Virus record (IMG/VR): IMGVR_UViG_3300032401_000690 | Span: 80,148-144,147 of that record | Length of the DNA: 64,000 bases | Reading direction: 5' to 3' (one strand) | Source of the DNA: a virus | Shown: piece by piece, positions 10,444-64,000 of the stretch | How the letters are laid out: each line of letters starts with the position of its first letter | Numbering within the stretch: position 1 is the first letter of the stretch | Program-made: the position numbers and the translations under genes | The notes under the pieces: model-generated | What the model saw: only the letters and a program-made list of their open reading frames with translations | What the model was told of the DNA's origin: nothing | Databases searched by the model: none

Positions 10444-10496
10444 TGTTGGTTAATAAAAAAAATACATCTAAGGTATTTATAAGATAAAGGTTAAAT

Positions 10497-15598: not shown

Positions 15599-15922
15599 AT
15601 GGCATTACAATATTATAATAGATACAATCAATTTTTACAAGATGGACAACAAACAGTTGTTCCTTATATTAACTTGCCGATAAAATCGTCTGATAAACTC
15701 TATATATATAAAGTTGGAATTTCAAGGTTGGATAAAGTATCTCAACAATTTTATGGAACACCCTTTTTTGGTTGGTTAATACTACAAGCAAACCCACAAT
15801 TTACGGGTTTTGAGTTTAACATACCTGACGCGGCTATCTTGACAATTCCATATCCTTTGTTAAGTTCATTACAAGACTATAAAAATACATTAGAAAATCA
15901 TTTCTTCTACTATGGCAGATAA
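15599..15922 (+). CDS. Baseplate wedge LysM-like protein (T4 gp53 / P2 gpX-like)
   Basis: RLDKVSQQFYGTPFFGWLILQANP...ILTIP. Confidence 0.8.
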   Translation: MALQYYNRYNQFLQDGQQTVVPYINLPIKSSDKLYIYKVGISRLDKVSQQFYGTPFFGWLILQANPQFTGFEFNIPDAAILTIPYPLLSSLQDYKNTLENHFFYYGR

Positions 15923-21900: not shown

Positions 21901-22481
21901 CAAATCAAGAATGTAGTGATAATTTAAATTCTGATTATAAAAATAAAAATTATGTAACGGCAACACCACAAAAAAACACAATTACAATTAAAGAAGCAAT
22001 AACATTAATTAATAAGAAAATTAATGAGTTAAACCCACCAAATAAAGAAGATTTAGCGTTATTAATTTATTCCATAATGTCATTAAGGTTAAGTACTAAA
22101 TTTAGTGGTTATGGTAATAATTATGGTGTTATACCATTAACATCATCATATGGTGGTTCAGATGTTAGTTTTAGTAAGACATATTTCTGTGATACTAATA
22201 AAACTCCAATAGTTATTTTTAATACTCCTGATTTATTTATGGATTTTATGGTTAGTAAATATGGTACTCAGATGGTGGCATTAAACGCTTATTTATTGAA
22301 TTTTACGACTTATCTTGATCCCCAACAATTGGCTAAAGCGATTGTTAAATTCTATGTTATTAATTTCCCATCAATAAGTGATAATAATGTATACGACAAA
22401 TTACCTGAAGATGATAAAATTAAATATGAGAATATTGTTATTAACGCAATTAAGGAATATAGGTTAAATGTGGGTCAATAA
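15912..22481 (+). CDS. Very large baseplate hub protein (gp27/late-control-D/VgrG-like fold at both ends)
   Basis: N-terminal LGITQINISY...IDVTLEDVKGRALF and C-terminal SYRCSIDMMGNALMQPMMYFNLRNVPMFSGPYMITKVSHRIG...TTIEGQR. Follows the gp53-like gene. Confidence 0.65.
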   Translation: MADNGENILVEFDYQNITVIDPNKIIDKDGKPQQRLINHEDLVMYANLECTVLPRTKLALGAPLSDTIRTVSVASMNFLNPGNKTFLDDDWSDEITGKNTLQGKGVNQKKSNIIPGNTSNIDKSDDYYITQTLVSNGNPGAVDNGLLGITQINISYSTDFMPIIDVTLEDVKGRALFEGGNNSPYAAFFQLPYPLFYLTIKGYLGKAVRLPLMLVTFNASFDPGSGNFRVQLKLYTYKYTIMSSVNWGGMMAAPLMYQSNVKTKQTTTTKNGNGNDKVTSSWSSTGFAKMKELYATYKSKGLIDDGFPEITLQELKVRLDTFLKNIIEEYSKTNMDVLNKLEEYAKNLTEYEQKVYIYSGEDAWAKKYLDFTDVFITKPTNTQKDGLTLYKFKKEYDTAEKRQLALTVLDGLVISYNGLLKGNATLGDNKPNSIPVNIVLDLKKNVSTFYSNATVTDIDLVKTYFTRSNKKITEEEKATFEAKVKLEFNSSQLFFFEGKGSFIDQTSTIAENFQIQKQKIEEGIAKDLTNKIGATFKSDGKGGGSGGIGFAPTIRNVLAVFFAQGEAFLRLLDDVHTKAWDLRDSPLRKNAILSNSSTVNSVDLKDLSIEKTPIYPWPQLIVENNLKEDGERFELMYPGHPSIATKVRAFSPEIWPEVQFVEEFIKGTVERSVKQDFPGSVTNSETKPSRLSFNAIEFPISNEVYQNTEEVKFFYEIYERMLLNSFYSKLSRDSNIDFNMKEYYAECEVLDIITALGSDNPYLTKKLKEYNLTSGSYLAFLKHISNEGSGESWQNFVRGEFNTSYIKNEVNSSFGLLSGDIIDNDKSMPLLSLKDVSQSTEYFGDNNNIENYDFTDLYPITNLGWDNTYLANAKGIQKAENIFKTTQVLEYNNTNKIITNYLNKGKGKDPITNFNYKPAIFSQTIDFTLLDLKVFYKNRKFEDQFITEGNIYYSNYENKLDADQTTSMLNTPYFVNAIQQGVYNFRYKSNDQSPYKSAAFLFLNSLPLATLKEKYKEYGDNASTKELDYIISTFKKFGAVHELPYAWILKYGSIWHRYKTWKETGVDILSEVWTDYNYAYNYDPTNSATTKNYTVTINGVTKEIILQDNFTSGLLTQTKINPGFYPRTIDDFNVFLQGQKVFGAIPQLINGTCTVSGTTLEITSINSNDIFTGAVLSGSGLSIGTTILDQLNGTAGGIGTYVISPLQTSGTTQFVVTNNNANGYTSGEIQGAIDNGLSLVNTTDSVITKTPGFDLGSITRGLSITPWSCYVATTDGESIYPMPSFGSTINQTLVECFRPNGTLKTEVSNNGAMYNGSVRTFWKAPNYGYFDNSRLSIPSPDSYLKEVFNDVAIQQNFSINGETNKYSTISELFTTFNKEILDILETEFLNFSRSEYDYNSTLSSNDELDSSKQNKNFQSLMRVVMKLPKPSPTSTNGNSIVKEIQENQITNFTSYLTTFMEYKVVMKYGNPSNYDKKLFYTFSNQFIIDPYSYQGYNQNSPNSLPTAGGTLTLSQSKTQYPETWKTLETYIGFSEIPELVYSDNGSYITDFFVDIDVEFSENNIKNFAPIIKMYATQKLQNSAITKVEFYSLMDTYLTKNTTYLNTVLDLELTRLRKELPTIEITSADGNVKSDLEGEQTRYELWDLFKTINDTWISGADFKSKTLFEDVLIMDRASRDVGQKVFVDIFMLKNLMENANYANKLLDIVQSILTANNFVNFTLPAYANFYNVKDVSKNPSPKPEGTLEFANTLFGTFLDVDYRETSAKFLCLYSNPPSKHLAMNENTDYRYRDDAFDLRRATDNPLLENQDGKTNWDKSNKVVGFNVDIGPQNQQIFKQIDISQDPGLPTSESLEVLNQMANLDQNRGGYTQSVSLYNLYKNRSYRCSIDMMGNALMQPMMYFNLRNVPMFSGPYMITKVSHRIGLDGFDTTIEGQRQPFYSIPKIESFIQSLSTKILSNIREKVEQNNKEINATTTNVISQTNNVVNNSNMTVGLSPNQECSDNLNSDYKNKNYVTATPQKNTITIKEAITLINKKINELNPPNKEDLALLIYSIMSLRLSTKFSGYGNNYGVIPLTSSYGGSDVSFSKTYFCDTNKTPIVIFNTPDLFMDFMVSKYGTQMVALNAYLLNFTTYLDPQQLAKAIVKFYVINFPSISDNNVYDKLPEDDKIKYENIVINAIKEYRLNVGQ

Positions 22482-34402: not shown

Positions 34403-37400
34403 ATGCCAAAATCATATAGAATAAGGACTCAACCTGGCGTTGACAAATCAATACAAATTAAATTAGATCAGGATTTTGAATTCTTGGAGATCTTATCTCT
34501 AAAGATACTTCAAAGTGACATCTATACTCGTTTGTGCTCCGATTATGGGGTGGTTGTTGGTAGAGTTTTAACGAATGGTGGAACTGGACTACCAAATGCG
34601 AAAGTATCGGTATTCATCCCAATAAGTGAGGTGGATCAACAAAATCCAATTATTTCCGAATTATATCCTTATACATCTTTAGAAGATTTAAATGTTGATG
34701 GGTATAGATATAACTTATTACCATATAAACCATCATATACAGGTCATGCAGCAACAGGGACATTCCCTGAGAGAGATGATATTTTAACTGATTTTTCATT
34801 GGTTGAGGTTTATAACAATTATTATAAATTTACAACCAAAACAAATGAGAGTGGTGATTATATGATATTTGGTGTTCCAACAGGGAGTCAGACCATTGTT
34901 ATGGATGTTGATCTTTCGGATATTGGGTGTTTTTCATTGACACCACAAGATTTGATTAATTCTGGAGTTGCGGGAGAAGGACAGTTTGATGGAAACAAAT
35001 TTAAAACCTCAAGTAACCTTCGTGAGTTACCACAAATTATTAATTTAAATAAAATTGTTGAAGTCCAACCATTATGGGGGGAACCTGAAGTTTGTTTGTT
35101 GGGAATTACAAGAGTTGATTTTGATTTAACTGCATCGTCAAACATTAATATCCAACCAACCTCAGTTTTTATGGGGTCTGTAATTTCAACTGCTAATGAA
35201 GATTCTCTTAAGAAAAGTTGTAAACCAAAATTAAACACGGGTAATATGTGTGATTTGGTTGCTGGTCCCGGACAAATATTGGCAATCAGACAAACAATTA
35301 ATGTTGATGCGAATGGTGATCCGGTTCTTGAAACTTATAAGATAGAACAAGATGGTAAGATAATTGACGGTGATGGTACGTGGTTAATAAACTTACCAAT
35401 GAACTTGGATTATATTACAACGAATGAATTCGGGGAACAAGTTATCTCTAATAACCCTAAAATAGGTATTCCGACAAAGGCAAAATATAGATTTAAAGTT
35501 AAGTGGCAAAACGAACAAGGATTACAAAATAACTTTATGAGGGGTAATTACTTAATACCTAATGTAAAAGAACATGGGTGGGATAGTACTAACCCAGATT
35601 ATGATCCATTTGACCCAACACTTGGTAGTGTATATGGGTTGGATATTCTTGTTGGATCAACACAAATGTCACAAATATTTCCTAAAGGTGGTTTAATATA
35701 TAATAGTAGTGTTAATTCTAATGATTTAAGTATTTTAATTGGTGGTGTTCCGTATTATGGTAGTTTAGATAGTATACCTCTAACTGGGTCAACAAATATT
35801 GTAACGTTAATATCAAATGCTATTGATGTGACTCAACAACAAACATTTTATTTTACTTTTTTACAGGATCCATATTTTACGGTATTAAAATCGTATGCGT
35901 TTAGTTTAGATTGGGATGATTATTACGATAAGGTATCAGCAATTAATTGTGAGGATACTTTTTATGAGTTTAATTATAATAAAGTTTATACTATTGCATC
36001 ATTTATTGATAGATATAAAAATGGTAGAAATAGGGCGAGACATCTTGGGATTAAAGAAATAACTGATAGGTCTTGTCAGAGTGAGAATAATAAAATGCCT
36101 GTAAATGATGTTGTTAGAAATTTTGATTTTTTATTTTTCTTATTTTCATTATTAATTGCAATTTTATCCCCAGTACTTGCGATTGTTATAGTCTTTAATC
36201 ACATATTGGCTTGGATATATCCTATTATTGTTAAAATAAATAACTTTATTATTAAAATTGTTAATGGTTTAATTTATGATTTATGTAAAGGGTTAAATGC
36301 TCTTAGGACTGCGGCAAATAAGAAAGAATGTAAGAAAGATGCTTTGGAATATATGTCCGATGAAAATCCATTTAAACGATTATCATTACCTATGTTAACG
36401 TATCCCGATTGTGAAGCTTGTAGTTGTGATGATAAAGGTTTGGTAACGGAAAATAGTGTTGCTGATGGTTTAAATGCCGCGGCTTTAAGTGTTAATTTAT
36501 CGTTATTATCTGATTTGGGGTCAATAGAAAGTTATAGTTCTTTCACACTTGATACTGCGTTAGATCCTTGTACTGGTTTGCCATTTCCTAACCCACCTGA
36601 TCAAACGGATTGGGATCAAGGAGTACAACAAATATTTGCGGGAACTTCAAATCCTGCTCAAGTTTATTATAAAGTACCTATTTGGGAAGAGGTAGGACCT
36701 AACGGAGTGACTCCTACTTCAGGTCAATTTTTTAAAAGATTTGGTGATGGTATGACACTTGGTCAGTCTATGAATATGGCTAATTTAAGAGCAAGATATT
36801 CTGATGCGACCGCTAGAAATAGAATTACAATAACTCCTAACCCATTATTAGGTGGTGATTCATATAAAGATTTATCTATGATTATATTAGTTGATGCGGG
36901 AACTACCGCACAATTAACTGGTAATTTAATAACATTTAATGATCCAGAACTTAATTCTGACCCAAATACTACGGGAGGAACTGAAAATCAGTTTGGTGGT
37001 AATGGGATTACAGGTATAACATTGGGAACTAGTACATATACGGTACCTTTAATTTATATGGATGATTCGGGTGTTAATATAACATCAAATATAAAAGTTG
37101 TTAGTAGTGAAAGTGAAAAAGAATACTTATATAAGTCGGGGTTAGAATATTTTCAAGTAATTACTGGATATACGTGGGATCAACTTACAATACCAGGTCC
37201 ATTACAACCAATAGGTAGTTATGTTGGTAGTTCAGTAATAAATTCGGGGGTTTTATATAAATATTTTTTACAAAATGAAATAAGTTATGTTAGTGCTTTA
37301 GCAGGATCACACTCTCCACCTTGGTATTGGTTTAATAGTTATCAACAACAAGAAATTTTAATTTTAGTAAGAGGTGTTGATCCATATACTGAAAAACAAG

Positions 37401-39634
37401 AAATAAAATATGATTTATCAGAATTATTTGGGCAACCATTAAATACCCTAACAGTGACTGGTGAATATTATTTAAATATACCAATACAACAGAATGATGG
37501 TGGGTTATATAGTTATGATCAAAAAACACCACAAACCCATGCAAATGCCAATAGTAACTCTAACACATTTTTATTTCACAAACCAATTGGGTTTACTGTG
37601 GATCCATTGGCGTTTACCGGATTCACCACCAATTCACCACAATATTATACATCAACAGATAGGTCTACTTTAAACTATATACACGGATCATATGATTCAG
37701 TCACTATGTCAGGTTGGATAGATATTGATGGTAGAATTACAGATGGTAATACTCAATTACAAAATTTTAGATGGAAAAGTACTGTTGGTCCATCTGGTGC
37801 AATAATTTTAAATGAATATATTGGAAGAGTTGATGGTGGATCATTCACAGTAACAAATGGTAATCAATATTCTTGTTATGATGGGGGACTTGGAATTTTA
37901 GCCCTGTCTGGGTACCCACTATTTACACCACTTAGTCCGTTAGCGAGATGTTACGCACCTGCTTATAGTGTCAATGCGAACGGTAATACACCATTAATGA
38001 CAAACATGAATTCAAGTGAATATTTAATATTTAGATCTGATAGGTTACCAACATCAGATCAAACGGATACGCTTGGTTATAATTCATTCCCATTACATCA
38101 AAATAATAATTTTTCATTTTACACCATATCACCTGAAGGTGGTGTTGTTAATTATAATATTTCTGCGGGTGGTGTTGCAGGTTTTAATGATTTGGATGCT
38201 ATTGGTGATTTAGGGACGGGTAATACTGCAAATTTGGTTAATACCTTCAGTTGTGAAGGTATGGTACCATTAGGTTGTTATTCAGGTGTGGGAACTAACT
38301 TTGGTATTGAGGATCCTTGTACTGATAATCAAACGGGTAAAAACGGACAAAATCAAAGAGTTTATAATGGGTGTTATTATTTTGTTGATGATAAACTAAT
38401 TAAAACAATTAAGGATGATTTAAAATTCCTTGCAGAATGGAGAACAAGATTTAGAATTATATTTGCTGCGTGTAGAGGGGTTTTCGGACATATGTTTCAA
38501 AACAATTGGATTAATGGTGTGTTATATATGCCATCATTTAATAAACAAACAAGATATAATATTGTTGGAATACCTAGTTATAAATATTGTAAGGATGTTG
38601 TGGTATTTAACGATATTAGTAATAATTTCTACTATAGAAGTTCTCCATACGCTGACGATATTGGTCAATTTATTGGAGCTCCAAGACCAACCGCATCAAA
38701 CTTACTAAATATTTCATTTGCGGGGGATGATGAGTCTGCAAATAAAAGACAAATTCTATTCCCAACAACAATTATGGATTTGGGTAATAGGGATGAGTTT
38801 ATTGCTGAAGTATGTGGTGATCCTGATTTTTCTAGTAGATATCTTGGGAATTCATTTAAAAGTACATCTTATCAAGATAGTTCAGATTTATTACAAATGG
38901 CAATTATTTCTAGAATTGTAAACTCAACATTTTTACAACAAGTATTGTCGGTACAAGAAGGTGGTATTGAACAATTTTTTAGTAGAGAAGGGGATAGAAT
39001 TGATGGTGATATTGCACAATCATTCTCAATTAATTCAGAATATCAGGTAACTCCATTTATTGGGGGTAACTATGATGATAATTATGTGTTTATTGGTGGT
39101 GATAATAGTAATGAACCTGTGTTTGGTATCTTCTACGTTAGTGATGAGAATGAGTATAAAAATAGGAGAGGATTATCTCCTGGTATTAATATTTACAGTT
39201 TTAGTACCGCACCTCCGCTACAAACTTTTTATGGTTATCCGAACACACAAGAAGTTCCATTATATAAGTGGCAAATATCACCTAATAACACAATATTTGG
39301 TGATCAAACAAATGAGTGGATGACTAATAATACTGGTAACCTTACCGGTAATGGTTTCTATAGTCAAAAATATCAAAGTTTGGATGTGGTTAATGATGAT
39401 TATTTTAAGACATCATTAATGTCTACAACATATCCGAACATTTATTATGGATATATAACAAATTTTGATTCAACACCGTCACCAGTAACACCACAACCAT
39501 ACGTGAATATATCACCAATAGTTGCAAATCCTGTTGTTGTGGGAGCTCCAAATTATTTTTATTTTGGTTTAAAAAATGGTAAAACCGCATTAAATAGGTT
39601 TATAAAAATATATATAGATACAACCGCAGAATAA
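34403..39634 (+). CDS. Large virion/baseplate-associated protein with N-terminal Cna-B/carboxypeptidase-regulatory-like beta domain and internal hydrophobic segment
   Basis: GVVVGRVLTNGGTGLPNAKVSVF...TKTNESGDYMIFGVPTG and hydrophobic FLFFLFSLLIAILSPVLAIVIVFNHILAWIYPIIV. Late motif at 34379. Confidence 0.55.
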   Translation: MPKSYRIRTQPGVDKSIQIKLDQDFEFLEILSLKILQSDIYTRLCSDYGVVVGRVLTNGGTGLPNAKVSVFIPISEVDQQNPIISELYPYTSLEDLNVDGYRYNLLPYKPSYTGHAATGTFPERDDILTDFSLVEVYNNYYKFTTKTNESGDYMIFGVPTGSQTIVMDVDLSDIGCFSLTPQDLINSGVAGEGQFDGNKFKTSSNLRELPQIINLNKIVEVQPLWGEPEVCLLGITRVDFDLTASSNINIQPTSVFMGSVISTANEDSLKKSCKPKLNTGNMCDLVAGPGQILAIRQTINVDANGDPVLETYKIEQDGKIIDGDGTWLINLPMNLDYITTNEFGEQVISNNPKIGIPTKAKYRFKVKWQNEQGLQNNFMRGNYLIPNVKEHGWDSTNPDYDPFDPTLGSVYGLDILVGSTQMSQIFPKGGLIYNSSVNSNDLSILIGGVPYYGSLDSIPLTGSTNIVTLISNAIDVTQQQTFYFTFLQDPYFTVLKSYAFSLDWDDYYDKVSAINCEDTFYEFNYNKVYTIASFIDRYKNGRNRARHLGIKEITDRSCQSENNKMPVNDVVRNFDFLFFLFSLLIAILSPVLAIVIVFNHILAWIYPIIVKINNFIIKIVNGLIYDLCKGLNALRTAANKKECKKDALEYMSDENPFKRLSLPMLTYPDCEACSCDDKGLVTENSVADGLNAAALSVNLSLLSDLGSIESYSSFTLDTALDPCTGLPFPNPPDQTDWDQGVQQIFAGTSNPAQVYYKVPIWEEVGPNGVTPTSGQFFKRFGDGMTLGQSMNMANLRARYSDATARNRITITPNPLLGGDSYKDLSMIILVDAGTTAQLTGNLITFNDPELNSDPNTTGGTENQFGGNGITGITLGTSTYTVPLIYMDDSGVNITSNIKVVSSESEKEYLYKSGLEYFQVITGYTWDQLTIPGPLQPIGSYVGSSVINSGVLYKYFLQNEISYVSALAGSHSPPWYWFNSYQQQEILILVRGVDPYTEKQEIKYDLSELFGQPLNTLTVTGEYYLNIPIQQNDGGLYSYDQKTPQTHANANSNSNTFLFHKPIGFTVDPLAFTGFTTNSPQYYTSTDRSTLNYIHGSYDSVTMSGWIDIDGRITDGNTQLQNFRWKSTVGPSGAIILNEYIGRVDGGSFTVTNGNQYSCYDGGLGILALSGYPLFTPLSPLARCYAPAYSVNANGNTPLMTNMNSSEYLIFRSDRLPTSDQTDTLGYNSFPLHQNNNFSFYTISPEGGVVNYNISAGGVAGFNDLDAIGDLGTGNTANLVNTFSCEGMVPLGCYSGVGTNFGIEDPCTDNQTGKNGQNQRVYNGCYYFVDDKLIKTIKDDLKFLAEWRTRFRIIFAACRGVFGHMFQNNWINGVLYMPSFNKQTRYNIVGIPSYKYCKDVVVFNDISNNFYYRSSPYADDIGQFIGAPRPTASNLLNISFAGDDESANKRQILFPTTIMDLGNRDEFIAEVCGDPDFSSRYLGNSFKSTSYQDSSDLLQMAIISRIVNSTFLQQVLSVQEGGIEQFFSREGDRIDGDIAQSFSINSEYQVTPFIGGNYDDNYVFIGGDNSNEPVFGIFYVSDENEYKNRRGLSPGINIYSFSTAPPLQTFYGYPNTQEVPLYKWQISPNNTIFGDQTNEWMTNNTGNLTGNGFYSQKYQSLDVVNDDYFKTSLMSTTYPNIYYGYITNFDSTPSPVTPQPYVNISPIVANPVVVGAPNYFYFGLKNGKTALNRFIKIYIDTTAE

Positions 39635-48200: not shown

Positions 48201-48221
48201 TTTAATATTTTATGTAGTTAA
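45216..48221 (+). CDS. Baseplate wedge protein (T4 gp7 / P2 gpI-like domain)
   Basis: IPSQLLKNLAQTLGW and YYRNLILNSAYLFKSKGTRKSIEALMRLIG gpI-like motifs. Confidence 0.7.
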   Translation: MAVTKYTCPPQTASGEGTFSDNLVGLQLVSGGGFTQGNFEFTTGLTEKTNRTFSIGSFSDPISLETLNIDDIAQSKLLVAKNFQVYPNYDLSEITNFTLFGSLSKRLSVSVSKIINFFPGGMEVFSSTTTFDVTKTADNISYDSVADETYLEICASVVRNPFDLDYTVNSTRNLLLKEIVVSPLRNFSVEYQNYSLFVNGIEYEIVTFTPLNDGDTTLKFYISGNPFSGQSFSHDTLLIRPTDYYVNKVFNENFDQVENFLLNREVSPIYTAYFNTPVERDNGTYVFSYEILTFPVNGVWNLDISGIPFNSYLTKLSNIANSLDLYTTNLISRFLTAGAIKEFDTQDQKVDKILQIYGRSFDETKKFIGALAFMNSVHYNVGNDIPSQLLKNLAQTLGWNNNISPITNEQLLSSVFSAGENTFTGLSKGQTPEELNYQYYRNLILNSAYLFKSKGTRKSIEALMRLIGAPDAITEFNEYVYVADQKINLSQFGEQYAQISGGTYVQQIPILDVSDIYSIMGNQYTGFTTSSQIQDVSVTVLDYPIDSFGFPSMPAVSDSFYFQIGGGWFESTPQHRMPQQIDLTNSVFTGQNPDYQTVLQPFNYGDEYLQRYRDFPYMDLGFKLKKIADNKKSWIDGGNTLRKSSDGNFNAYYNTGDDRLVLNVKNVDIFMNPGQGLAYDVWYMSRTYNFPIPEEGLNYVVPTYCDPNPNTPYPQRGGIDWTVIIPKPKQKTFFEFAQSFWHNTINVRNRQYITDGKTGGYPTLQSIYWKYLESRQLAGIDNDNFTYQTMIDYVNGLGDYWIRLVEQMVPATTIWNAGVKYENSIFHRQKFVWRRQMGCQLVPVPCNPCQLVAQLFAYDCPIQSTNCPIYPWGSNPLITSFGGVLGSTLNSYLTANGLTMGSCDLNTLQTTWYVNAKLDGGDVVSYPFFNGVGYNNPLSVPSDSTWLSAIQTSFVDLQNYGLTYYINSNDTITVYNNNCTPLSITQNFELNVGINFNILCS

Positions 48222-50470
48222 TGAGTTGCGGACTTCCATATATATATAACTATTTTTTAAGTGGTGATTGTAGTAATACGAATTCTGGTATAATATCTTT
48301 TGATATATCAGGTGGTACGGGACCATATGCCGTTAGTGAGGTAACGACGACGGGGGTATTACCTTTATCTGCAAGTACAAGTAACTATTATTTTAGTGGT
48401 TTATCTGCTGGTACATATACTTTATCAATAACGGATTCTTGTGTGTCTCCGACACCGTCAACCATATATGTCCCCTTTGTAGTATCGTCGGGAAGTTGTT
48501 TGTCGTCCTCAATTACCAACACAATTTGTGGGTTTAATAATGGTACGTTAACTGCAACATTTAGTCCATATTATGGTACTGGAACTGTTTCTCTTTATGA
48601 GACAACTTTAGGGTATATTAATAGTGCTTTGACAATATCGTCAAGTGCTACTTTCTTCAATTTAACTGGTGGGACATATTATGTTATTGGGGATGATGGG
48701 GGTGGATGTACCGGAAAAAGTGAGTCGTGTATTATAAAATCATCAACTACTTTGGATTTTGGTTATTATGTTATAAATGATGGTAGTTGTGTTGCTTTGG
48801 ATGGTGCAGGAAAAATATTTATAACAGGACAAACGGGGACACCACCATATACTTATGTTTGGAGTTCAAACGCAAATGGGCAGACAGGATCTACGGTTAC
48901 TGGATTAACTGCGGGTAATTATGGGGTTACGGTTACTGACTCTTTGGGTTGTACTAAAATAGATAATAGTATTGTTATATCTGAGGTTTTACCTGTTGGG
49001 ATTGTTAATCTTACGACAGTATCACCAAGTTGTTTCTCAAACGATGGTGAGGTATTCGCCCAACTAACCGGTGGTACATCACCATTCTACTTTTCAGGAT
49101 CAAACGGTACTGTTGGAATAACATTTGCTAATAATTTCACATTTACTGGGTTATCAACGGGAACTTTAACTGTTAGTGTAACTGATGCGGGACTATGTAC
49201 GGCATTGGGGGTTGTTTCGTTATTAACACCTAATGGGTTCTCAATTGCAAACATTTCAACAATAAATTCAAATTGTAATAACAATGATGGTCAAATTAAC
49301 ATTGTATTAAATGGTGGGACTAATTCAGGAACATATGTTTATACGTTAATTGATTCTTCGGGTAATACGGTTAATATTGCAACTTTAGGAACTACTTGTG
49401 ACTTTACTAACGTATCGTCAGGGGTATATACTATTAAAATAGAAAATGGTGCCTGTGTTTTTACGGGTACAACAACGGTAAGTAATACCAATTTATATAC
49501 GATTTCGGCTTCTACTACGGGAACTACCTGTGGGTTTGATAATGGATCAATACAAATTATTGCAACAAGTGGTGGTACCTTACCATATGTATACCAAATA
49601 ACGGGACAACCTGCAGGTCCTGTAACGACATTTAATGGTCTTGCTCAAGGATTTTACAATATAACCGTAACAGATGGGTCAGGATGTCAACAATATGATA
49701 CCGTTTATATTAATGGATCAAGTAGTATGTATTTTGATTTGTTTGTTTCACAACCGTTATTTGGGAATGATGGGGAGATTTCAACACTAATTAGTAGTGG
49801 TGAACCACCATTTACGTTTAATTGGAGTTCTAATGTGAATGGTCAAACGGGTACAACTGTGACAGGATTAACTGCGGGAACATATTCTTTGGAGGTAATT
49901 GATGATAATGGTTGTGTCTTTACAAGAACAACGACTTTAGTTGGAACCACACAATATGCAACATACCAATCATATAATGTTTGTTCTCAAGATTTTGTTA
50001 ATACTGGTGTTTTAGGTAAAAGAGGGATTTTACAGATGTTATATGAGGGATATTTTGATTTAACATCGGGGGATACGAATTGTGTTCTTAATTCTGCAAT
50101 ATTCACGGCAGACGTTACAGTTAATGGCGTTGATCAACAAAGTGTTTTTTATACATCAACAGGGTTTGAAGATACTCCAACCGATAATGATTGGGTAACG
50201 GCAATAACAAATTTATTATACGCTTTTGCCGGTATTAGTAGTGTTTTAGTTAATCTTGATACAAATCAGATAATTATAACTAGTGGTTGTCAGACTGAAG
50301 GTGAAGGGTGTCAAACAAAGAGTGTTACTACATTGGATGACGCAAATGTTAAAATAAGTTTAAATATTGATTACGATATTTCTTGTGTGGAATGTGAGAT
50401 ATATCAGAAAGTTTTTCAAGATGATTTTGAATTTATATTCCAAGATGATAACAGTTATATTTTTCAATAA
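48221..50470 (+). CDS. Virion adhesin-like protein with SprB-type repeats
   Basis: Repeated C...DG.I....GG.PPY.Y.WS....G....TGLTAG.Y.VTVTD..GC units. Confidence 0.75.
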   Translation: MSCGLPYIYNYFLSGDCSNTNSGIISFDISGGTGPYAVSEVTTTGVLPLSASTSNYYFSGLSAGTYTLSITDSCVSPTPSTIYVPFVVSSGSCLSSSITNTICGFNNGTLTATFSPYYGTGTVSLYETTLGYINSALTISSSATFFNLTGGTYYVIGDDGGGCTGKSESCIIKSSTTLDFGYYVINDGSCVALDGAGKIFITGQTGTPPYTYVWSSNANGQTGSTVTGLTAGNYGVTVTDSLGCTKIDNSIVISEVLPVGIVNLTTVSPSCFSNDGEVFAQLTGGTSPFYFSGSNGTVGITFANNFTFTGLSTGTLTVSVTDAGLCTALGVVSLLTPNGFSIANISTINSNCNNNDGQINIVLNGGTNSGTYVYTLIDSSGNTVNIATLGTTCDFTNVSSGVYTIKIENGACVFTGTTTVSNTNLYTISASTTGTTCGFDNGSIQIIATSGGTLPYVYQITGQPAGPVTTFNGLAQGFYNITVTDGSGCQQYDTVYINGSSSMYFDLFVSQPLFGNDGEISTLISSGEPPFTFNWSSNVNGQTGTTVTGLTAGTYSLEVIDDNGCVFTRTTTLVGTTQYATYQSYNVCSQDFVNTGVLGKRGILQMLYEGYFDLTSGDTNCVLNSAIFTADVTVNGVDQQSVFYTSTGFEDTPTDNDWVTAITNLLYAFAGISSVLVNLDTNQIIITSGCQTEGEGCQTKSVTTLDDANVKISLNIDYDISCVECEIYQKVFQDDFEFIFQDDNSYIFQ

Positions 50471-54915: not shown

Positions 54916-56466
54916 ATGCCAAATTGTTATTGTTTAGAATTTAGTTTTGCTAAAGTTAGTGAATATGACTTAACCTACACTAATTGTAGTGGAAATACTG
55001 TCACAGAAACATTTTTAAGTGGAACAACATATAATATATGTAGTCAGGATTTAGATCCGATCACATCTTGTCTTGATATTGTCTTTGAAGTAAAAGGATT
55101 ATGTATTGACGGAGATTGTCCCCAACAATTAATTAAATATCAAAATGAATGTGATGTGATAACGATATTCCCTATGGGAGTTCAGTGTTACGTTACACAA
55201 CCAACTAACTCAATAACATACAATGGATCGGCAACATTACAAATAACAGGTGGAACTCCACCATATCACGTAATGTGGGATAATGGGAATATATCATCAA
55301 CAATATCAAATTTAGGGCCTGGTAGTTATGGATCAACGGTGGTTGATTTTTATGGTGATTTTACGGCAAACACTATTTGTGTTTTAACGGGAGTTACGAT
55401 AAGTCCAACACCAACACCTACACCAACACCAACACCAATACCAACGTTTGGTGATTTATGTTTAGTTGTGAAAGGTAGAAAGACTGAAAAAGTATCTTTT
55501 ATGGAAGTGATTAACTTTAATTATAATGGGTATGTTAATGGAAAACCATCGTGGATCTCTGACGACACATTATATACGATTGAATGGGTTACATTAACTA
55601 ATCAATGGGAAATTATAGGTTGGACAATAGGGTCAATTATAAATATTAACCCAATTTATCCACCTCTAACAGGATGGCAAATATTGGGGACACAATATCC
55701 ATATGTTGTAACAGAATTAACAGTTTCTAATGGTAATTGTGGTAGTTTGGATATATTAAGATATGATTTAACGGTTAATCAACCAACTTGTAAATGTAAT
55801 GGTAGTATAATCTTTAATGTGATTGATGGTGTTCCACCATATCAATATAGTATTGATGGTTTAACATATTTTAATTCGCCAATTTTTAATAATTTATGTG
55901 ATGGATTTTACCCAACTAAAGTTAATGATTCTTCAGGTCAAACATTTACTGAAGTGGTAACATTAAATATTCCGCCACCACCACAAACATATTCAGTTTC
56001 ACTATTGTTAAATGTTGTTGGAAATAGTTTTAGTGTTAATGTTACCCCGCCATTACCTCTTGGTGCATCACTTATCTTTGATTTAGTACATAAATCTGAT
56101 TTTACAGTTGCTCCAACTATAGGCGTGGCAACATACAATAATGTTGTTACGGTTAATGTTAATAGTGTTTCTACACCGTATAGTACAACATCTGTTGTTG
56201 GAACATCAACACTTTTATCAAATAAACTTTGTATTGGGGGAACACAAACCAATACGATAACAACAAATATTTGGAATAATCTAACTATGGTTCAAGGAAC
56301 AACTATTAATGGTACGATAACTAATTCTGTTATACCAATAACCCCATTAGTTGCTTGTTATAGTGTTAAGTCAGGATATAATTTAATCTTAGATAATGTT
56401 AGATTGATTGATTGTCCTTGTTGTAATTTAGTGATAAAATTACCGGCAGGTACGAGTAAAGTTTGA
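54916..56466 (+). CDS. Cys-rich virion protein with SprB-like repeats and PT linker
   Basis: ITGGTPPYHVMWDNG, DGVPPYQYSIDG and SPTPTPTPTPTP. Confidence 0.65.
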   Translation: MPNCYCLEFSFAKVSEYDLTYTNCSGNTVTETFLSGTTYNICSQDLDPITSCLDIVFEVKGLCIDGDCPQQLIKYQNECDVITIFPMGVQCYVTQPTNSITYNGSATLQITGGTPPYHVMWDNGNISSTISNLGPGSYGSTVVDFYGDFTANTICVLTGVTISPTPTPTPTPTPIPTFGDLCLVVKGRKTEKVSFMEVINFNYNGYVNGKPSWISDDTLYTIEWVTLTNQWEIIGWTIGSIININPIYPPLTGWQILGTQYPYVVTELTVSNGNCGSLDILRYDLTVNQPTCKCNGSIIFNVIDGVPPYQYSIDGLTYFNSPIFNNLCDGFYPTKVNDSSGQTFTEVVTLNIPPPPQTYSVSLLLNVVGNSFSVNVTPPLPLGASLIFDLVHKSDFTVAPTIGVATYNNVVTVNVNSVSTPYSTTSVVGTSTLLSNKLCIGGTQTNTITTNIWNNLTMVQGTTINGTITNSVIPITPLVACYSVKSGYNLILDNVRLIDCPCCNLVIKLPAGTSKV

Positions 56467-56508
56467 TAAATAAATAATAAAATTAGATATACAATATTTA
56501 TATAACAA

Positions 56509-58950
56509 ATGGCATATATATTAAAAAATACTTCGGGGTTAATCAACACAAGAGTAACTGATACGGGAAGACAAAAGTTATCCGAAGGTAATTTCAACAT
56601 ATCATATTTCCAAATTGGGGATAGTGAAGTTTCCTATAACGCATTACCGAGTAGTTATAATCAACCATATAGTGTTGTATTGGAACCACCATTTAATACT
56701 CAAAATAGTTCAGGTGTTCCCCAATCTAACAGACAAGCGGTTAAATATCCGTATTATGTTGATGGATCTGCGGGTAATACATATGGTATCCCTTATATGG
56801 ATTCTATAATTGAACCTGTATTTAATAGAGCACCACTTCGTGGGTTTTTTACGGGAAATACTACCGCAACAACTATTAGTTGGAGTGCATTAACTAATGA
56901 TAATTATGTTGTTAGTCCGAACTACCTTGTTGATATGTCTACATTAAGTGGAACGAATGTTGTGAATTTAATATATTCAGGTCCTAACACATTTAATCAA
57001 ACCACACCATCTATTGGCGATTTTATAACGATGTTTTTTGATGGTAAGGGTAATATGAATTCGGCTTGTTATAACTTGCCGACTCCAACACCAACGGCAT
57101 CTATTGGTAGTACGGCAACTCCAACACCAACACCTAGTTCTACTAGTAATATTGATTGTTCAACACCTACACCAACGCCTACACCAACAAAGACACCTTG
57201 TTTAACACCATCGTCAAGTCCTATATGTCCTTTACCTCCACCGGCAGATTGTTATTTGGATGTAAGTAGTTGTTATCCGATTATGACTTATAGAATTGTT
57301 GATGTATGTAATACTTATACAATAACTTTAGATAGGGCAACACCTGATTTTTCAGCATTTTCTGCGGGATGTTATTCAACAACAATAATCTATCCTGCAA
57401 CGATGACACCAATTTACGATAGTATAACACCGGGACCACATTGGAAAACGGATGTTATTAATTTTGAATCGGTATGTGATGTGGATCAATTTGATGTTAA
57501 GATATGGAATATGAATATTCCTTGGACTGAGAATCCTGCGGGGTTAAACTCTAACTTATATATGGATTATACTAAATTTGGTTCGGTAGATTATATTGGA
57601 TCAAAAGAATATTTTGGATATAATTCAAGTTTGGGTCAGTCGGATACAAGTTCTGTTTTTTATATAAACTCATTTAATGAGAAAATTGTGGTTCAACCAA
57701 AGGAACAAAAGGCGGTTGCAATCATTCATTATACAAATCAAACAATTGATTTCTTCTATGGTGAAAAATTTGCACTTGAACCATATGATCCAACAAACCC
57801 TGAAGATACTACAGGTCAAGCAAGAAACTTTAAATTACACATTCCTTGGTTGATGTGGCATAAAAATCCTGAATGTTGTTATGGTGAGACTTTTTGGGTT
57901 GATCCTGCAAATTTTGAGGATAAGGATTTGTTCACCGTTCAGTATATTGAATCACTTAAGAACACTGGAATGAACCAACCTGGTATTAGATATTACCATT
58001 TATGGGATACGCACCCAAATGCTGATGGTAACCCAAGTAGAATTGGTAAGGTATTCCCTGATAGTAAGATTATTATTATTGATGATGAAGAAGTTGTTGC
58101 GGCAATGTCTTATAAGTCAAATAGAAATTGGACTCTACCAGCTCCTCAAATATCGTTAATCACACCAAATACTTGTGGAACACCTACAACGACTGTGGAT
58201 GGTATCTTAACGGGTAATAATGAGACAATGTTTGTTACTTATAGATTAACGAATGAGAGTGGATTCACAAATTCATTACATTGTAATTATTACTCAAAAG
58301 TTGTTGGTAATAATAACGATTGTAATCCTGATACATCTAAAAATGTTGGGATTAGATTTGGTGCCGAATTTAATTGTTTATCACAACCAGGATTTACTGC
58401 GGGAACCGAATGTTCGGTTGCGTGTAATGTACCTACAGGATTTTATGGTAATAAGTTTGAGATATTATGTCAGAAAGTTATTACGGGGACTAGACCTGAT
58501 CCTACGGGGTGGGTATTGATTGATTTTACGGACGCAATTAGTGCAACGACAGTAAATGGTTATTTAACACAATCGGGGATCACAGGGACGACCTTTGTTA
58601 TAACTCCTGAACTTTATAGTAGTGGATCAACATATGTACTTAATGATTATATTGATATGGTGGATCTTGGAACTACAGGTCAGACACTTAATTTTGGTGA
58701 TGAGTTCTATTTTTATGGTGGAATTGAAACCGATATTCAAGCAACAATATATGAAATGAAATATAAAGTTAATCTTGGGGCTGCTGAATTCCAAAATACT
58801 TCTAACCCAACTTGGACTCAAGGAACCAAATCATATATTACTGAAATATCGTTATTAGATAAAAATAAAGACATTCTTGTGGTATCTAAATTACAATCAC
58901 CAGTGTTAAGACAGGGGATACAACAATTCTTGGTGAAGTTGGATTTTTAA
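56509..58950 (+). CDS. Baseplate / tail-fibre attachment protein (tail-collar-like ends) with PT-rich insertion
   Basis: N-terminal RVTDTGRQKLSEGNFNISYFQIGDSE and C-terminal YITEISLLDKNKDILVVSKLQSPV. Confidence 0.6.
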   Translation: MAYILKNTSGLINTRVTDTGRQKLSEGNFNISYFQIGDSEVSYNALPSSYNQPYSVVLEPPFNTQNSSGVPQSNRQAVKYPYYVDGSAGNTYGIPYMDSIIEPVFNRAPLRGFFTGNTTATTISWSALTNDNYVVSPNYLVDMSTLSGTNVVNLIYSGPNTFNQTTPSIGDFITMFFDGKGNMNSACYNLPTPTPTASIGSTATPTPTPSSTSNIDCSTPTPTPTPTKTPCLTPSSSPICPLPPPADCYLDVSSCYPIMTYRIVDVCNTYTITLDRATPDFSAFSAGCYSTTIIYPATMTPIYDSITPGPHWKTDVINFESVCDVDQFDVKIWNMNIPWTENPAGLNSNLYMDYTKFGSVDYIGSKEYFGYNSSLGQSDTSSVFYINSFNEKIVVQPKEQKAVAIIHYTNQTIDFFYGEKFALEPYDPTNPEDTTGQARNFKLHIPWLMWHKNPECCYGETFWVDPANFEDKDLFTVQYIESLKNTGMNQPGIRYYHLWDTHPNADGNPSRIGKVFPDSKIIIIDDEEVVAAMSYKSNRNWTLPAPQISLITPNTCGTPTTTVDGILTGNNETMFVTYRLTNESGFTNSLHCNYYSKVVGNNNDCNPDTSKNVGIRFGAEFNCLSQPGFTAGTECSVACNVPTGFYGNKFEILCQKVITGTRPDPTGWVLIDFTDAISATTVNGYLTQSGITGTTFVITPELYSSGSTYVLNDYIDMVDLGTTGQTLNFGDEFYFYGGIETDIQATIYEMKYKVNLGAAEFQNTSNPTWTQGTKSYITEISLLDKNKDILVVSKLQSPVLRQGIQQFLVKLDF

Positions 58951-59004
58951 AAAAACTTTAATTTTTCTTGATAAACACTATATTGTTATTATATATATTT
59001 TTTT

Positions 59005-59607
59005 ATGGTAAAAAACATTAAAAATTCACCTAAAGTATTAGGTCTTGATGTCTCAACAACAACTATTGGGTGGGCGTTATTTGATATCCAAAAACAAGAA
59101 TTGTTGGAATTAACACATATCTCACCAAGACCAAAAAACGCTGGTGACAGTAAAATCTTGGAACTGATGTTAAAATCGGAAATATTCAAGACAAAATTAA
59201 TGGAGTATAAGAACTTGGGTATTGCAAATGTAATAATTGAAGAACCATTACTTAACTCAAACAACGTATATACCGTTCAAACATTATTAAGATTTAACAC
59301 TTTAATTTGTAAAGTAATATATGATGTGTTGGGAATTGTTCCTGAATTTATATCCACTTATAACTCAAGAAAATTTGCATTCCCAGAATTGGTTCAACCA
59401 AATGATAAAGGTAAGTATGTTTTATTTGGGGGTCTTCCAAAAGATGCTGATAAGAAACATATAATTTGGGATCTTGTTGCAAAAAAAGAACCACAAATAC
59501 AATGGTTATATACCAAAAATAATACGCTCAAGAAAGAAAACTTTGACCAAACAGATGCTTACGCCTGTGTTTTAGGTTATATGCAATCAAAAGAAATTTG
59601 GAAATAA
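59005..59607 (+). CDS. ruvC: RuvC-like Holliday junction resolvase
   Basis: VLGLDVSTTTIGWA, VIIEEP and FDQTDAYAC catalytic acidic motifs. Confidence 0.85.
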   Translation: MVKNIKNSPKVLGLDVSTTTIGWALFDIQKQELLELTHISPRPKNAGDSKILELMLKSEIFKTKLMEYKNLGIANVIIEEPLLNSNNVYTVQTLLRFNTLICKVIYDVLGIVPEFISTYNSRKFAFPELVQPNDKGKYVLFGGLPKDADKKHIIWDLVAKKEPQIQWLYTKNNTLKKENFDQTDAYACVLGYMQSKEIWK

Positions 59608-59668
59608 TAATAATGTAAAGATATTTCTTTACAAAACAATAATAATGTAAAGATGGTTCTTTACAAAA
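59606..59668. repeat. Two tandem 31-nt direct repeats (period 32), each with an 8-bp palindrome
   Basis: AATAATAATGTAAAGAT(AT/GG)TTCTTTACAAAA at 59606 and 59638. Confidence 0.9.
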
Positions 59669-59701
59669 AATATCGGTCAATAATTGTCCGATATTTTTTT
59701 T
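59665..59701. terminator. Bidirectional terminator between convergent genes
   Basis: AAAAAATATCGG-TCAATAATTGT-CCGATATTTTTTT. Confidence 0.75.
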
Positions 59702-60773
59702 ATGGGGTTGTTGATGATGGTGTTGGTGTTGGGGTTGGTGTTATACAAGGACAATCAACAAATACAACATTTATGTTAGTTCCACTAGGAACAGTCCAAG
59801 ATTTAATTGTTATAATAGAATTACCACCTATGTTATTAGTTTGTGGAACGCCATTACTACAATTAGTTGTGGTAAATGTGTTGGCAGAAAATAGTAAATT
59901 GGTAACAATATATTCACAACATACTGAAGGTGTTGATGAAGGTGTTACCGTCGGTGTCATTGTTGGTGTCATTGTTGGTGTTTGTGATGGTATTGGTAAA
60001 CAAGGACTACAATCAGGACCATACTCAATATTTAACGATACAACGTCAGATCCACTAATGTTATCAACAACCCCAATGTAAGTAACGCAAATATCGTTCC
60101 CATTAATTGTTGCACCATATACATACTCAACAACAGGAGTTCCTCCAGTTGGGTTTAGAACAACATCGGTTGTAGAATAGATAAATCCTGAACTACAATC
60201 TCTAAATTGTTTACTGTTTGCACATCTGATATAATCATCAACGGTATTAAATATTACTAACCCATTATAATTACAAGGTCTTAAAATACTTGCAGATTGG
60301 GTTGGTGTGACTGTAGGTGTTGGTGTAGGTGTTGGTGTATATGTAACACCACTAACTACGAGTGAAACTCCACCACAAGGATTAGTTGAGGATGGTGTCA
60401 TTGTTGGTGTCATTGTTGGGGTAACGGTTGGTGTTACTGTGGGGGTAACGGTAACCTCACAATCAAAAAGACCGTCAAAATCTATATTACAAGCGGCGGT
60501 TGGTGTTGGTGTTGGTGATGGACAAGGTCCTGGTCCAAAAAGTTCATCACATAAGTCAGGACATAAACTTGAGCAAGGTGATTTACCAAATAATAAACAA
60601 GTTGGATCTCCTAATGTGGATGCTAAACACCATTGTGTTTGTCCCGTGGAGTAATAAATAGTGTAGGTATCACCTGTGTAATAATCATACCCATCATAAG
60701 TTCCTGCGGAAAAATATCCACCATCATAATTTGTTCCGGTACCACTAATACAATATTCTAATAAACAAGGCAT
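59700..60773 (-). CDS. Cys-rich virion-type protein with multiple Pro-Thr linkers
   Basis: Likely start MPCLLEYC at 60773, just after the upstream stop. Several PTPT/PTVT/PTMT tracts separate small Cys-containing domains. Confidence 0.7.
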   Translation of the reverse strand: MPCLLEYCISGTGTNYDGGYFSAGTYDGYDYYTGDTYTIYYSTGQTQWCLASTLGDPTCLLFGKSPCSSLCPDLCDELFGPGPCPSPTPTPTAACNIDFDGLFDCEVTVTPTVTPTVTPTMTPTMTPSSTNPCGGVSLVVSGVTYTPTPTPTPTVTPTQSASILRPCNYNGLVIFNTVDDYIRCANSKQFRDCSSGFIYSTTDVVLNPTGGTPVVEYVYGATINGNDICVTYIGVVDNISGSDVVSLNIEYGPDCSPCLPIPSQTPTMTPTMTPTVTPSSTPSVCCEYIVTNLLFSANTFTTTNCSNGVPQTNNIGGNSIITIKSWTVPSGTNINVVFVDCPCITPTPTPTPSSTTP

Positions 60774-60775
60774 AA

Positions 60776-60997
60776 TTAAACTGTTACAGTATCGGTTACG
60801 ACACAATTATTATCATCAACCACTTTAACAATAAAATCTGTTAAAGATGAAAAAATTGGTGGAATCTCAAAAATATATGGTAAATCACCGGTGGCGATAG
60901 TTGATACATAGATGCAGGTTGTGTATCCTGTATCACATACATAAATATCAAAAGGTGTTTGACCCAAAGCGTTGGTTATTGTTATATCTGTTGGCAT
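60776..60997 (-). CDS. Small virion adaptor-like protein (paralog of 50470..50772)
   Basis: Similar to the 50470 product. TATTTAT on the minus strand at 61005-61011. Confidence 0.7.
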   Translation of the reverse strand: MPTDITITNALGQTPFDIYVCDTGYTTCIYVSTIATGDLPYIFEIPPIFSSLTDFIVKVVDDNNCVVTDTVTV

Positions 60998-63375: not shown

Positions 63376-63573
63376 ATGACACATAAACAATTTTATATTT
63401 GGTTGGATGGTTATTTAACTGGTAAGTTGGAAGACAAACATATTGCGATTGGACCTATTGTTGAAAAAATGGGTGAAGTTATATCTGACGAACAAAAATG
63501 GATTAATGATTTTACATCGTATCGGAAAATGGAAAAATTAAATCCAATTAAAATTGAGAACTCACCTGAATAA
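63376..63573 (+). CDS. Hypothetical protein
   Basis: 65 aa with an MTHKQFYIWLDGYL N terminus typical of small phage proteins. Confidence 0.65.
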   Translation: MTHKQFYIWLDGYLTGKLEDKHIAIGPIVEKMGEVISDEQKWINDFTSYRKMEKLNPIKIENSPE

Positions 63574-63601: not shown

Positions 63602-63898
63602 ATGAATAAACAAGGAATTGTATTAAAGTGGTTAAACAAAGAGTTTGGTAATTTAACTCCGGTGGTTAAAAATGATAAAACATTTTATGTTGATAAGGAC
63701 AGATTGCCGTTATTTTACTATTACCAGGATTCAAAAAATAGGTATGTTTATATAAATTACGAAAGAATTTGGGTATTTTTTGAATCCATTTTTGGTCTGA
63801 ATTACTTGCAAACACAGGAGATTCTGAAGGTATGGTTGGGGGAGACCTATAATTTGAGGGGAGTCACACCTAAGTACTTTAAATCTGAATCACTTTAA
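63602..63898 (+). CDS. 98-aa array-associated hypothetical protein whose C terminus is encoded by repeat 1 + spacer 1
   Basis: MNKQGIVLKWLNKEFG...KVWLGETYNLRGVTPKYFKSESL*. ATG at 63602 follows the promoter element (track start 63554). Confidence 0.7.
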   Translation: MNKQGIVLKWLNKEFGNLTPVVKNDKTFYVDKDRLPLFYYYQDSKNRYVYINYERIWVFFESIFGLNYLQTQEILKVWLGETYNLRGVTPKYFKSESL

Positions 63899-64000
63899 TA
63901 GTTGGAAGAGACCTATAATTTGAGGGGAGTCACACCTAACAATTCAAAGTTCCAATGTGGAATTTCCTGTTGGAAGAGACCTATAATTTGAGGGGAGTCA
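63835..64000 (+). CRISPR. CRISPR-like repeat-spacer array with no cas gene in the window, truncated at window end
   Basis: 36-nt repeat GTTGGAAGAGACCTATAATTTGAGGGGAGTCACACC at 63835-63870 (2 mismatches), 63901-63936 and 63969->64000. Unique spacers of 30 nt (63871-63900) and 32 nt (63937-63968). The repeat structure is certain; CRISPR function is inferred. Confidence 0.65.

Follow-up and report, generated by a model that had tools for sequence, protein, structure and literature searches.

Cas-less arrays and repeat-mimicking RNA anti-CRISPRs are already known from viruses, and in the mini- and compact arrays the repeats reportedly match arrays of the host and the spacers are said to match related viruses. 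The mini-CRISPR arrays of archaeal viruses are cas-less or partial (PMC6858448), compact CRISPR arrays occur in huge phages (PMC7162821) and both are presumed to use machinery supplied in trans. Repeat mimicry also takes the form of Racrs, single repeats without spacer turnover, and the survey of these elements reported viral solitary repeats of all CRISPR types except type VI (PMC10651486). VIPR is likewise phage-borne, cas-less and repeat-based, its guide RNAs serve mobile-element conflicts, and these vrRNAs display alternating GGY/NN motifs and require the Vipr protein (10.64898/2026.04.26.720920). Among cellular systems, type VI-B arrays alternate 36-bp repeats with 30-bp spacers, their transcription proceeds from the leader, and those of Flavobacterium columnare are filled in trans by the Cas1 and Cas2 of a type II-C system (PMC8092290; PMC13187072). 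The entire repeat folds into the hairpin by which the effector Cas13b recognises it, and cleavage takes place at the repeat's 3' end (PMC13187072; PMC8092290). An extraneous crRNA from a first repeat sequesters Cas13b and weakens defence (PMC13187072).

The locus described here lies at the end of a 64,000-nt window, that is, the whole stretch of viral DNA that was analysed, and the coordinates of its features are collected in Table 1. The original prediction of three 36-nt repeats at the window edge, the last one partial, is borne out by the copies found there, and both the lengths (30 and 32 nt) and the mutual dissimilarity of the two predicted spacers were reproduced. The third repeat is incomplete because the window end is also the end of the 144,147-bp IMG/VR contig, for which CheckV estimates a completeness of 49%. 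The two mismatches of repeat 1 result from GGGG replacing GAAG at repeat positions 5-8. The repeats are near-identical and of fixed length, the spacers are unique and constrained in length, units are gained at the leader end and distal spacers are common to related genomes, and the window array is confirmed as a real CRISPR-type repeat-spacer array, located in a phage and without cas genes. Like the viral mini- and compact arrays, which have no adaptation genes and frequently no effector genes, the phage arrays are short and cas-less; in contrast to them, no host array with a matching repeat and no spacer target came to light, and each phage array grows from the coding end of one gene family. 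They share with Racrs the nature of phage-borne CRISPR-repeat mimics that could titrate a Cas effector (PMC10651486), and differ from them by their spacer turnover.

Table 1. Coordinates of the array and of the other features mentioned in the text. Positions are those of the window, unless the source contig ("contig") or another locus is named.
Feature	Position	Strand	Remarks
Small gene	63602-63898	+	98 aa from the ATG at 63602 (likely start); mechanical ORF starts at 63554
Perfect 14-nt inverted repeat	63727-63740 / 63774-63787		within the small gene, 48 nt upstream of repeat 1
Repeat 1	63835-63870	+	2 mismatches to the other copies; encodes (W)LGETYNLRGVTP
Spacer 1	63871-63900	+	30 nt; doubles as protein tail KYFKSESL plus stop
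Repeat 2	63901-63936	+	reference copy, exact
Spacer 2	63937-63968	+	32 nt; identical to the second spacer of the 8-repeat array of contig L040
Repeat 3	63969-64000	+	first 32 of 36 nt
Eight further repeat copies	contig 73718-74786	opposite to the window array	about 6 kb before the window
Module 2	L009 6137-6371
497-aa fusion protein	L009 6640-8130 (contig 74639-76129)	-	ends in the array-bearing C-terminal domain
Counterpart of the window array in contig L040	L040 6940-7180	-	contains the shared repeat 2, spacer 2 and repeat 3
Giant ORF	10497-15593		1699 aa, no Pfam or PADLOC family
Giant ORF	15912-22478		2189 aa, no Pfam or PADLOC family
Giant ORF	34403-39631		1743 aa, no Pfam or PADLOC family
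Giant ORF	contig 56456-60454		1333 aa, no Pfam or PADLOC family
RuvC-type Holliday junction resolvase	59005-59607		200 aa
Tandem 6/12-nt repeats	60288-60534		GGTGTT-like
ORF with Thr-Pro linker repeats	59700-60806	-	368 aa
SprB/T9SS-domain protein	48221-50467
SprB/T9SS-domain protein	contig 10488-12929 (L126)

The small protein had been described as adjacent to the array, and its gene does lie there; in fact the 3' end of this gene is itself repeat 1, which corresponds to its last 12 conserved codons, and the small gene therefore represents the leader side of the array. Both window spacers begin with TAA, as previously noticed, which had raised the possibility of a 39-nt repeat. This longer repeat is ruled out, as TAA opens 3 of the 80 unique spacers gathered from the window, L009, L010-L018, L030-L059 and L070-L115, for 2.5 expected, and the repeat measures 36 nt. 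The small gene contains a perfect inverted repeat upstream of repeat 1 (Table 1). The gene end and array were compared with shuffled sequence, and neither a stable structure nor a leader-repeat hairpin emerged (z = +1.4); scans for promoters and terminators of the locus stayed at chance level. Elsewhere in the window, a stretch of tandem 6/12-nt repeats is not a guide array: it corresponds to the reverse strand of the Thr-Pro linker repeats of a 368-aa ORF.

The module formed by the gene and its array is repeated within the genome and among related phages. A scan of the whole contig allowing up to 9 mismatches recovered eight further copies of the repeat as its only matches outside the window array. 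They are distributed in three modules, all just outside the window, which share the same plan: a paralogous gene ending in the repeat is followed by one to five full repeats with spacers, and the module terminates in a repeat that is intact for about 21 nt and missing or degraded beyond them. The repeat core was also retrieved in 9 IMG/VR contigs and in 30 metagenome stretches, all of which are phage modules, and the repeat is present in most of the 46 loci retrieved through the protein. Dozens of related phage contigs were thus found to carry the gene-plus-array module, with 53 slightly differing variants of the repeat collected over the loci, and this recurrence of a 36-nt repeat is far beyond chance. 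That the locus might instead be a non-CRISPR element (a chance tandem repeat, a protein repeat or a VIPR-type guide array) is scarcely credible: this reading accounts for the absence of cas genes and nothing else, and it is opposed by more than 130 copies in many contigs, arranged in units of 36 plus 28-32 nt, and by spacers that are unrelated to each other and break the reading frame. Visual inspection of the spacers led to the rejection of the VIPR-type array, as it revealed neither the alternating GGY/NN motifs that distinguish VIPR guides nor a 5-nt pattern.

Comparison between phages also reveals the direction in which the arrays change. The loci L089 and L080 have one additional gene-proximal spacer relative to L090, and the three agree in their distal spacer and in a degenerate unit at the end of the array; this unit is conserved as well in module 4 of the source contig. 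At a single locus represented by L095-L102, arrays harbour one to three unrelated spacers whose number differs between phages. The closest comparison for the window is provided by the metagenome contig L040, in which repeat 2, spacer 2 and repeat 3 are 100% identical to those of the window, spacer 1 differs and the gene ends are about 88% identical. Spacer 1 is missing from L040 and is therefore the newest unit of the window array. Gain of units on the gene side combined with old distal units shared between phages is the pattern seen in CRISPR adaptation. The identical block stands behind two different small-gene paralogues in the window and in L040, and sequence comparison suggests either a recombination through the repeats or a gain of spacer 1 after the two lineages had split. 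L040 is also the best available view of what may lie past base 64000. Its array continues with five spacers beyond the shared part and is followed by genes for an Mre11-type metallophosphatase, a DUF559 protein, a DUF1360 protein and an SbcC/Rad50-like protein; a cas operon directly downstream, which would have turned the array into an ordinary phage CRISPR locus, is thus absent from this sibling. In L010, L011, L013, L015 and L016, a diverged 149-aa member of the family is accompanied by one 28-nt spacer and a degenerate second repeat, both identical in all five contigs including a complete 296-kb record, and this locus looks like a frozen one-spacer array. In module 2, three neighbouring spacers are alike in their first 7-9 nt.

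The claim that no cas gene lies in the 63 kb preceding the array holds over a larger territory. Models of Cas13b (the Bergeyella zoohelcum protein and NF038190), Cas1 (PF01867) and Cas2 (PF09827) matched nothing over the whole 144-kb source contig and four related viral records, one of which is 296 kb long and rated 100% complete; Cas13b and Cas1 were likewise absent from five more related records of 104-158 kb, which brings the number of records to 10. Altogether, none of the known cas genes was detected in about 1.1 Mb of related phage DNA. The Cas9 model (TIGR01865) gave no credible match in the source contig, G001 and three others, and its single 11-bit match was rejected as the N-terminus of a RuvC-type Holliday junction resolvase (Table 1). 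PADLOC, applied to the small protein and to the contig's 14 largest ORFs, returned no match, and a 587-aa SNF2 helicase matched generic SNF2-helicase models only; across the largest ORFs, Pfam and PADLOC revealed no cas or other defence-specific family. The contig encodes four giant ORFs without any family in either collection, which are candidate partners of the array.

The 98-aa protein belongs to a large family whose members come exclusively from metagenomes and viral contigs (902 clusters at 90% identity, 1022 representatives at 50%). Pfam, PHROG and PADLOC have no family for it, and no relative was found in cultured phages. A 1072-aa protein of L044 that clustered with this family was discarded, the domain being absent from it. 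The AF2 model predicts a small alpha/beta fold (pLDDT 89.9) with no convincing match in the PDB (best Z 4.9), its sole structural relatives being uncharacterised multi-copy proteins from uncultured phages. The first two-thirds of the repeat encode the conserved last helix of the family, W-L-x-E-x-Y-N-L. Remote homologues retain W-x-x-E-x-Y-N-L at the end of this helix, often without RGxTP, and the first two-thirds of the repeat are therefore an old coding motif. The repeat was probably derived from the 3' end of the small gene itself, and a coding sequence appears as a plausible source of such a repeat.

The seeding of new arrays by off-target integration is known from the literature, the primary work reportedly being that of Nivala in 2018. 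The repeat-like gene end could accordingly have acted as an off-target site for a host integrase (a "neo-CRISPR", a term used in 10.1101/148544), leaving arrays that are neutral and functionless by-products. The ancestral coding nature of the 5' two-thirds of the repeat agrees with such an origin, as does the failure to find either spacer targets or a strand bias. We nevertheless regard it as rather unlikely that the arrays have no function, considering that their repeats are near-identical in many phages that have diverged and that carry several modules each, that old spacers are retained between phages, and that the repeat codons are fixed, rare AGG and ACC included, in a sample picked by similarity to the repeat.

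A different origin and use of the arrays would be autonomous, with repeats read by a phage-encoded non-Cas partner and a phage enzyme supplying the new units. In nearly every locus examined, the array begins in the C-terminus of a member of the small-protein family, and no other gene family is consistently adjacent that could represent a candidate effector; both observations point to the phage itself, and the small alpha/beta protein or the unannotated giant proteins, four ORFs of 1333-2189 aa without Pfam or PADLOC family, would be candidate partners. The failure to find a cellular array with this repeat and the frequency of the modules across phage habitats, when Cas13b is rare, argue in the same direction. 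Against it, the predicted fold of the small protein carries no RNA-binding or nuclease signal, and spacers tightly held at 28-32 nt together with exact duplication of the repeat are the mark of Cas1-Cas2, which is absent here. Moreover, unrelated proteins such as a superoxide dismutase carry the domain as a C-terminal fusion, which fits a carrier better than an effector. One such fusion is the 497-aa protein of the source contig, in which an N-terminal region with an HExxH-like motif and a complete Fe/Mn superoxide dismutase precede the array domain; relatives carry similar fusions of 548 and 602 aa, and the superoxide dismutase domain groups with viral proteins. On balance, an autonomous reading by a non-Cas partner is possible though doubtful. 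It is also unlikely that the modules form a self-contained phage system, with a repeat born from the codons of the last helix and phage proteins that read it and perhaps extend it. A phage-encoded reader is kept in play because no matching cellular array was found and because Cas13b is rare.

The repeat had been predicted to resemble those of type VI-B systems, and this likeness is real but modest as judged from the sequences. Lengths, polarity and identity speak for it, while a covariance model, the predicted hairpin and the search for a cellular array speak against it. Type VI-B arrays (those of B. zoohelcum and of F. columnare, L021; PMC8092290) and the phage arrays have in common a 36-nt repeat and spacers of about 30 nt, a 5' GTTGG, a central TTTGA(G/A)GGG block and a 3' CACA-C. 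In both, the leader is situated at the GTTGG side with the newest spacers beside it, and the distal repeat is degenerate; the type VI-B loci, which are filled in trans, usually lack Cas1 and Cas2 (PMC8092290), as the phage arrays do. The two differ in that 24-26 of the 36 positions are common, with CACC for CAAC and a short inner stem, and in that the phage array has a protein-coding first repeat, no non-coding leader and no Cas13b. The two-thirds identity to the Bergeyella Cas13b repeat, proposed at the outset, is correct and amounts to 24/36 without gaps against the real repeat, part of this identity being forced by the degenerate search pattern, which fixed 20 positions. This pattern retrieved arrays of Bergeyella, Riemerella, Capnocytophaga, Kaistella, F. 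columnare, F. covae and a Bacteroidales genome, and the array of B. zoohelcum (L022) adjoins a 1224-aa ORF scoring 839 bits on the Cas13b model. When both strands of the contig were scanned with the Bergeyella repeat, the array copies came out on top with 24 matches over a background reaching 22; the gapped score to the F. columnare repeat was 25-26, for a maximum of 21-22 in 5000 shuffles.

The structural comparison is less favourable to the resemblance. A covariance model built from 11 cellular VI-B repeats did not detect the phage repeats (best score 8.2 bits, E = 9), the window copies not being among the matches listed, and Rfam offered only a weak reverse-strand match to CRISPR-DR8 (E = 0.62). 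The phage repeats are predicted to fold at -3 to -6.8 kcal/mol, compared with -7 to -11 kcal/mol for cellular repeats, and the variant of the window, at -3.0 kcal/mol, would form a 3-bp CCU/AGG as its sole stem. The closing stem GTTG/CACC proposed earlier is recovered as GUUG/CACC in the predicted fold, where the U2-C35 mismatch breaks it, and the whole-repeat hairpin closed by GUUG/CAAC that characterises type VI-B is lacking, whereas the 36-nt repeat, the spacer of about 30 nt and the leader on the GTTG side are present. The exact core of the repeat is absent from 185,579 species genomes, and cellular arrays with the repeat were found neither in 401 Flavobacteriales nor among the 30 metagenome matches; a host carrying a matching array may simply be unsampled. 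The flanks of cas9 in F. columnare and B. zoohelcum were examined and type II-C arrays were not found there.

The 80 unique spacers are 28-32 nt long with a mode of 30, and their [G + C] content of 34% is close to that of the phage (32%). They do not show an antisense bias relative to coding strands (estimated 43% sense). The verification of spacer targets called for by the original prediction did not yield a convincing one: the 80 spacers have no match in the source contig or in 733 kb of related phage DNA outside arrays, and those of the window array and of a 7-repeat array matched nothing in 50,697 cultured phage records. Among five spacer 20-mers compared with IMG/VR, three matched nothing, including that of spacer 1, one matched its own arrays only, and the fifth, from spacer 2, matched two copies of one viral contig. 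This last match extends over 22 contiguous nt (25/32 overall) and is probably due to chance; the contig has 50-53% [G + C], and the matching stretch falls within a 499-aa gene, in sense orientation. Spacers starting with AAC or TAC are in excess (9/80, about 3 expected); an AAC start produces a repeat ending in CCAAC, which could pair with the 5' GTTGG and restore a closing stem similar to that of type VI-B.

The translation of the first spacer as a protein tail raises a further alternative, in which the array would store alternative C-terminal cassettes of the small protein, switched by recombination or by gain of units. In the LEETYNL frame of the repeat 57 of the 80 spacers are free of stop codons, compared with 42-49 in the other five frames, and the AF2 model allows the first tail residues to add a strand. 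The stop-free excess, however, sits in the later, normally untranslated spacers (32/40). First spacers have an in-frame stop in 15 cases out of 40 and give tails of 3 to 68 aa with nothing conserved, and around half of the spacers break the frame by their length (28, 29, 31 or 32 nt). A cassette role of this kind is very improbable.

Indications on the host come from two phage proteins containing an SprB repeat (PF13573) and a T9SS-associated galactose-binding-like domain (PF23759). Both domains are typical of Bacteroidota and give a hint, at the level of domain content, that the host belongs to this phylum. The phage DNA polymerase shares only 23% identity with its counterparts in Salinibacter phages and cyanophages, the window contains no tRNA gene, and the -7 promoter motif of Bacteroidota is not enriched upstream of the ORFs.

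The explanation that we tentatively place first, with a probability approaching one half, is that a T4-like jumbo phage, whose host is probably a member of the Bacteroidota, has at least four arrays anchored in genes and devoid of cas genes, which are filled and read by the machinery of the host. The transcript of the small gene would run on into the array, an integrase of the Cas1-Cas2 type supplied by the host would insert new units in trans, for which acquisition in trans as in F. columnare (PMC8092290) provides the model, and a host effector, most likely of the Cas13b type, would take up the spacer-plus-repeat RNAs. These RNAs could then dilute the anti-phage guides of the host, as decoys, or guide the effector against competitors. 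Our analysis leans toward the decoy role, because the collateral RNase activity of Cas13b would also harm the phage that triggers it and because extraneous crRNA has been shown to sequester Cas13b (PMC13187072). Several observations count against this host-dependent explanation, namely that the repeats escape the cellular model and fold weakly, that the search pattern forced part of the identity, that neither a cellular array nor spacer targets nor an antisense bias were found, and that phages of many waters and sediments carry the modules although Cas13b is rare.

Three aspects of this locus appear to be new relative to the literature searched. The first is an array that has the coding end of a conserved gene as its leader and first repeat, in a module that recurs several times within a genome and, among phages, in hundreds of contigs; no description was found there of an array whose first repeat is a conserved coding gene end. 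The second is the resemblance of a viral array to type VI-B repeats, and the third is the plausible derivation of a CRISPR repeat from coding sequence. If the array RNAs load or titrate Cas13b, they would represent the first RNA-based counter-measure against type VI systems, or hijack of them. A self-contained system, if true, would provide the phage with heritable and updatable guide RNAs or protein tails outside the known CRISPR-Cas types. If the array RNAs do not act on Cas13b, the modules would imply a new reader of CRISPR-like RNAs in common aquatic jumbo phages.
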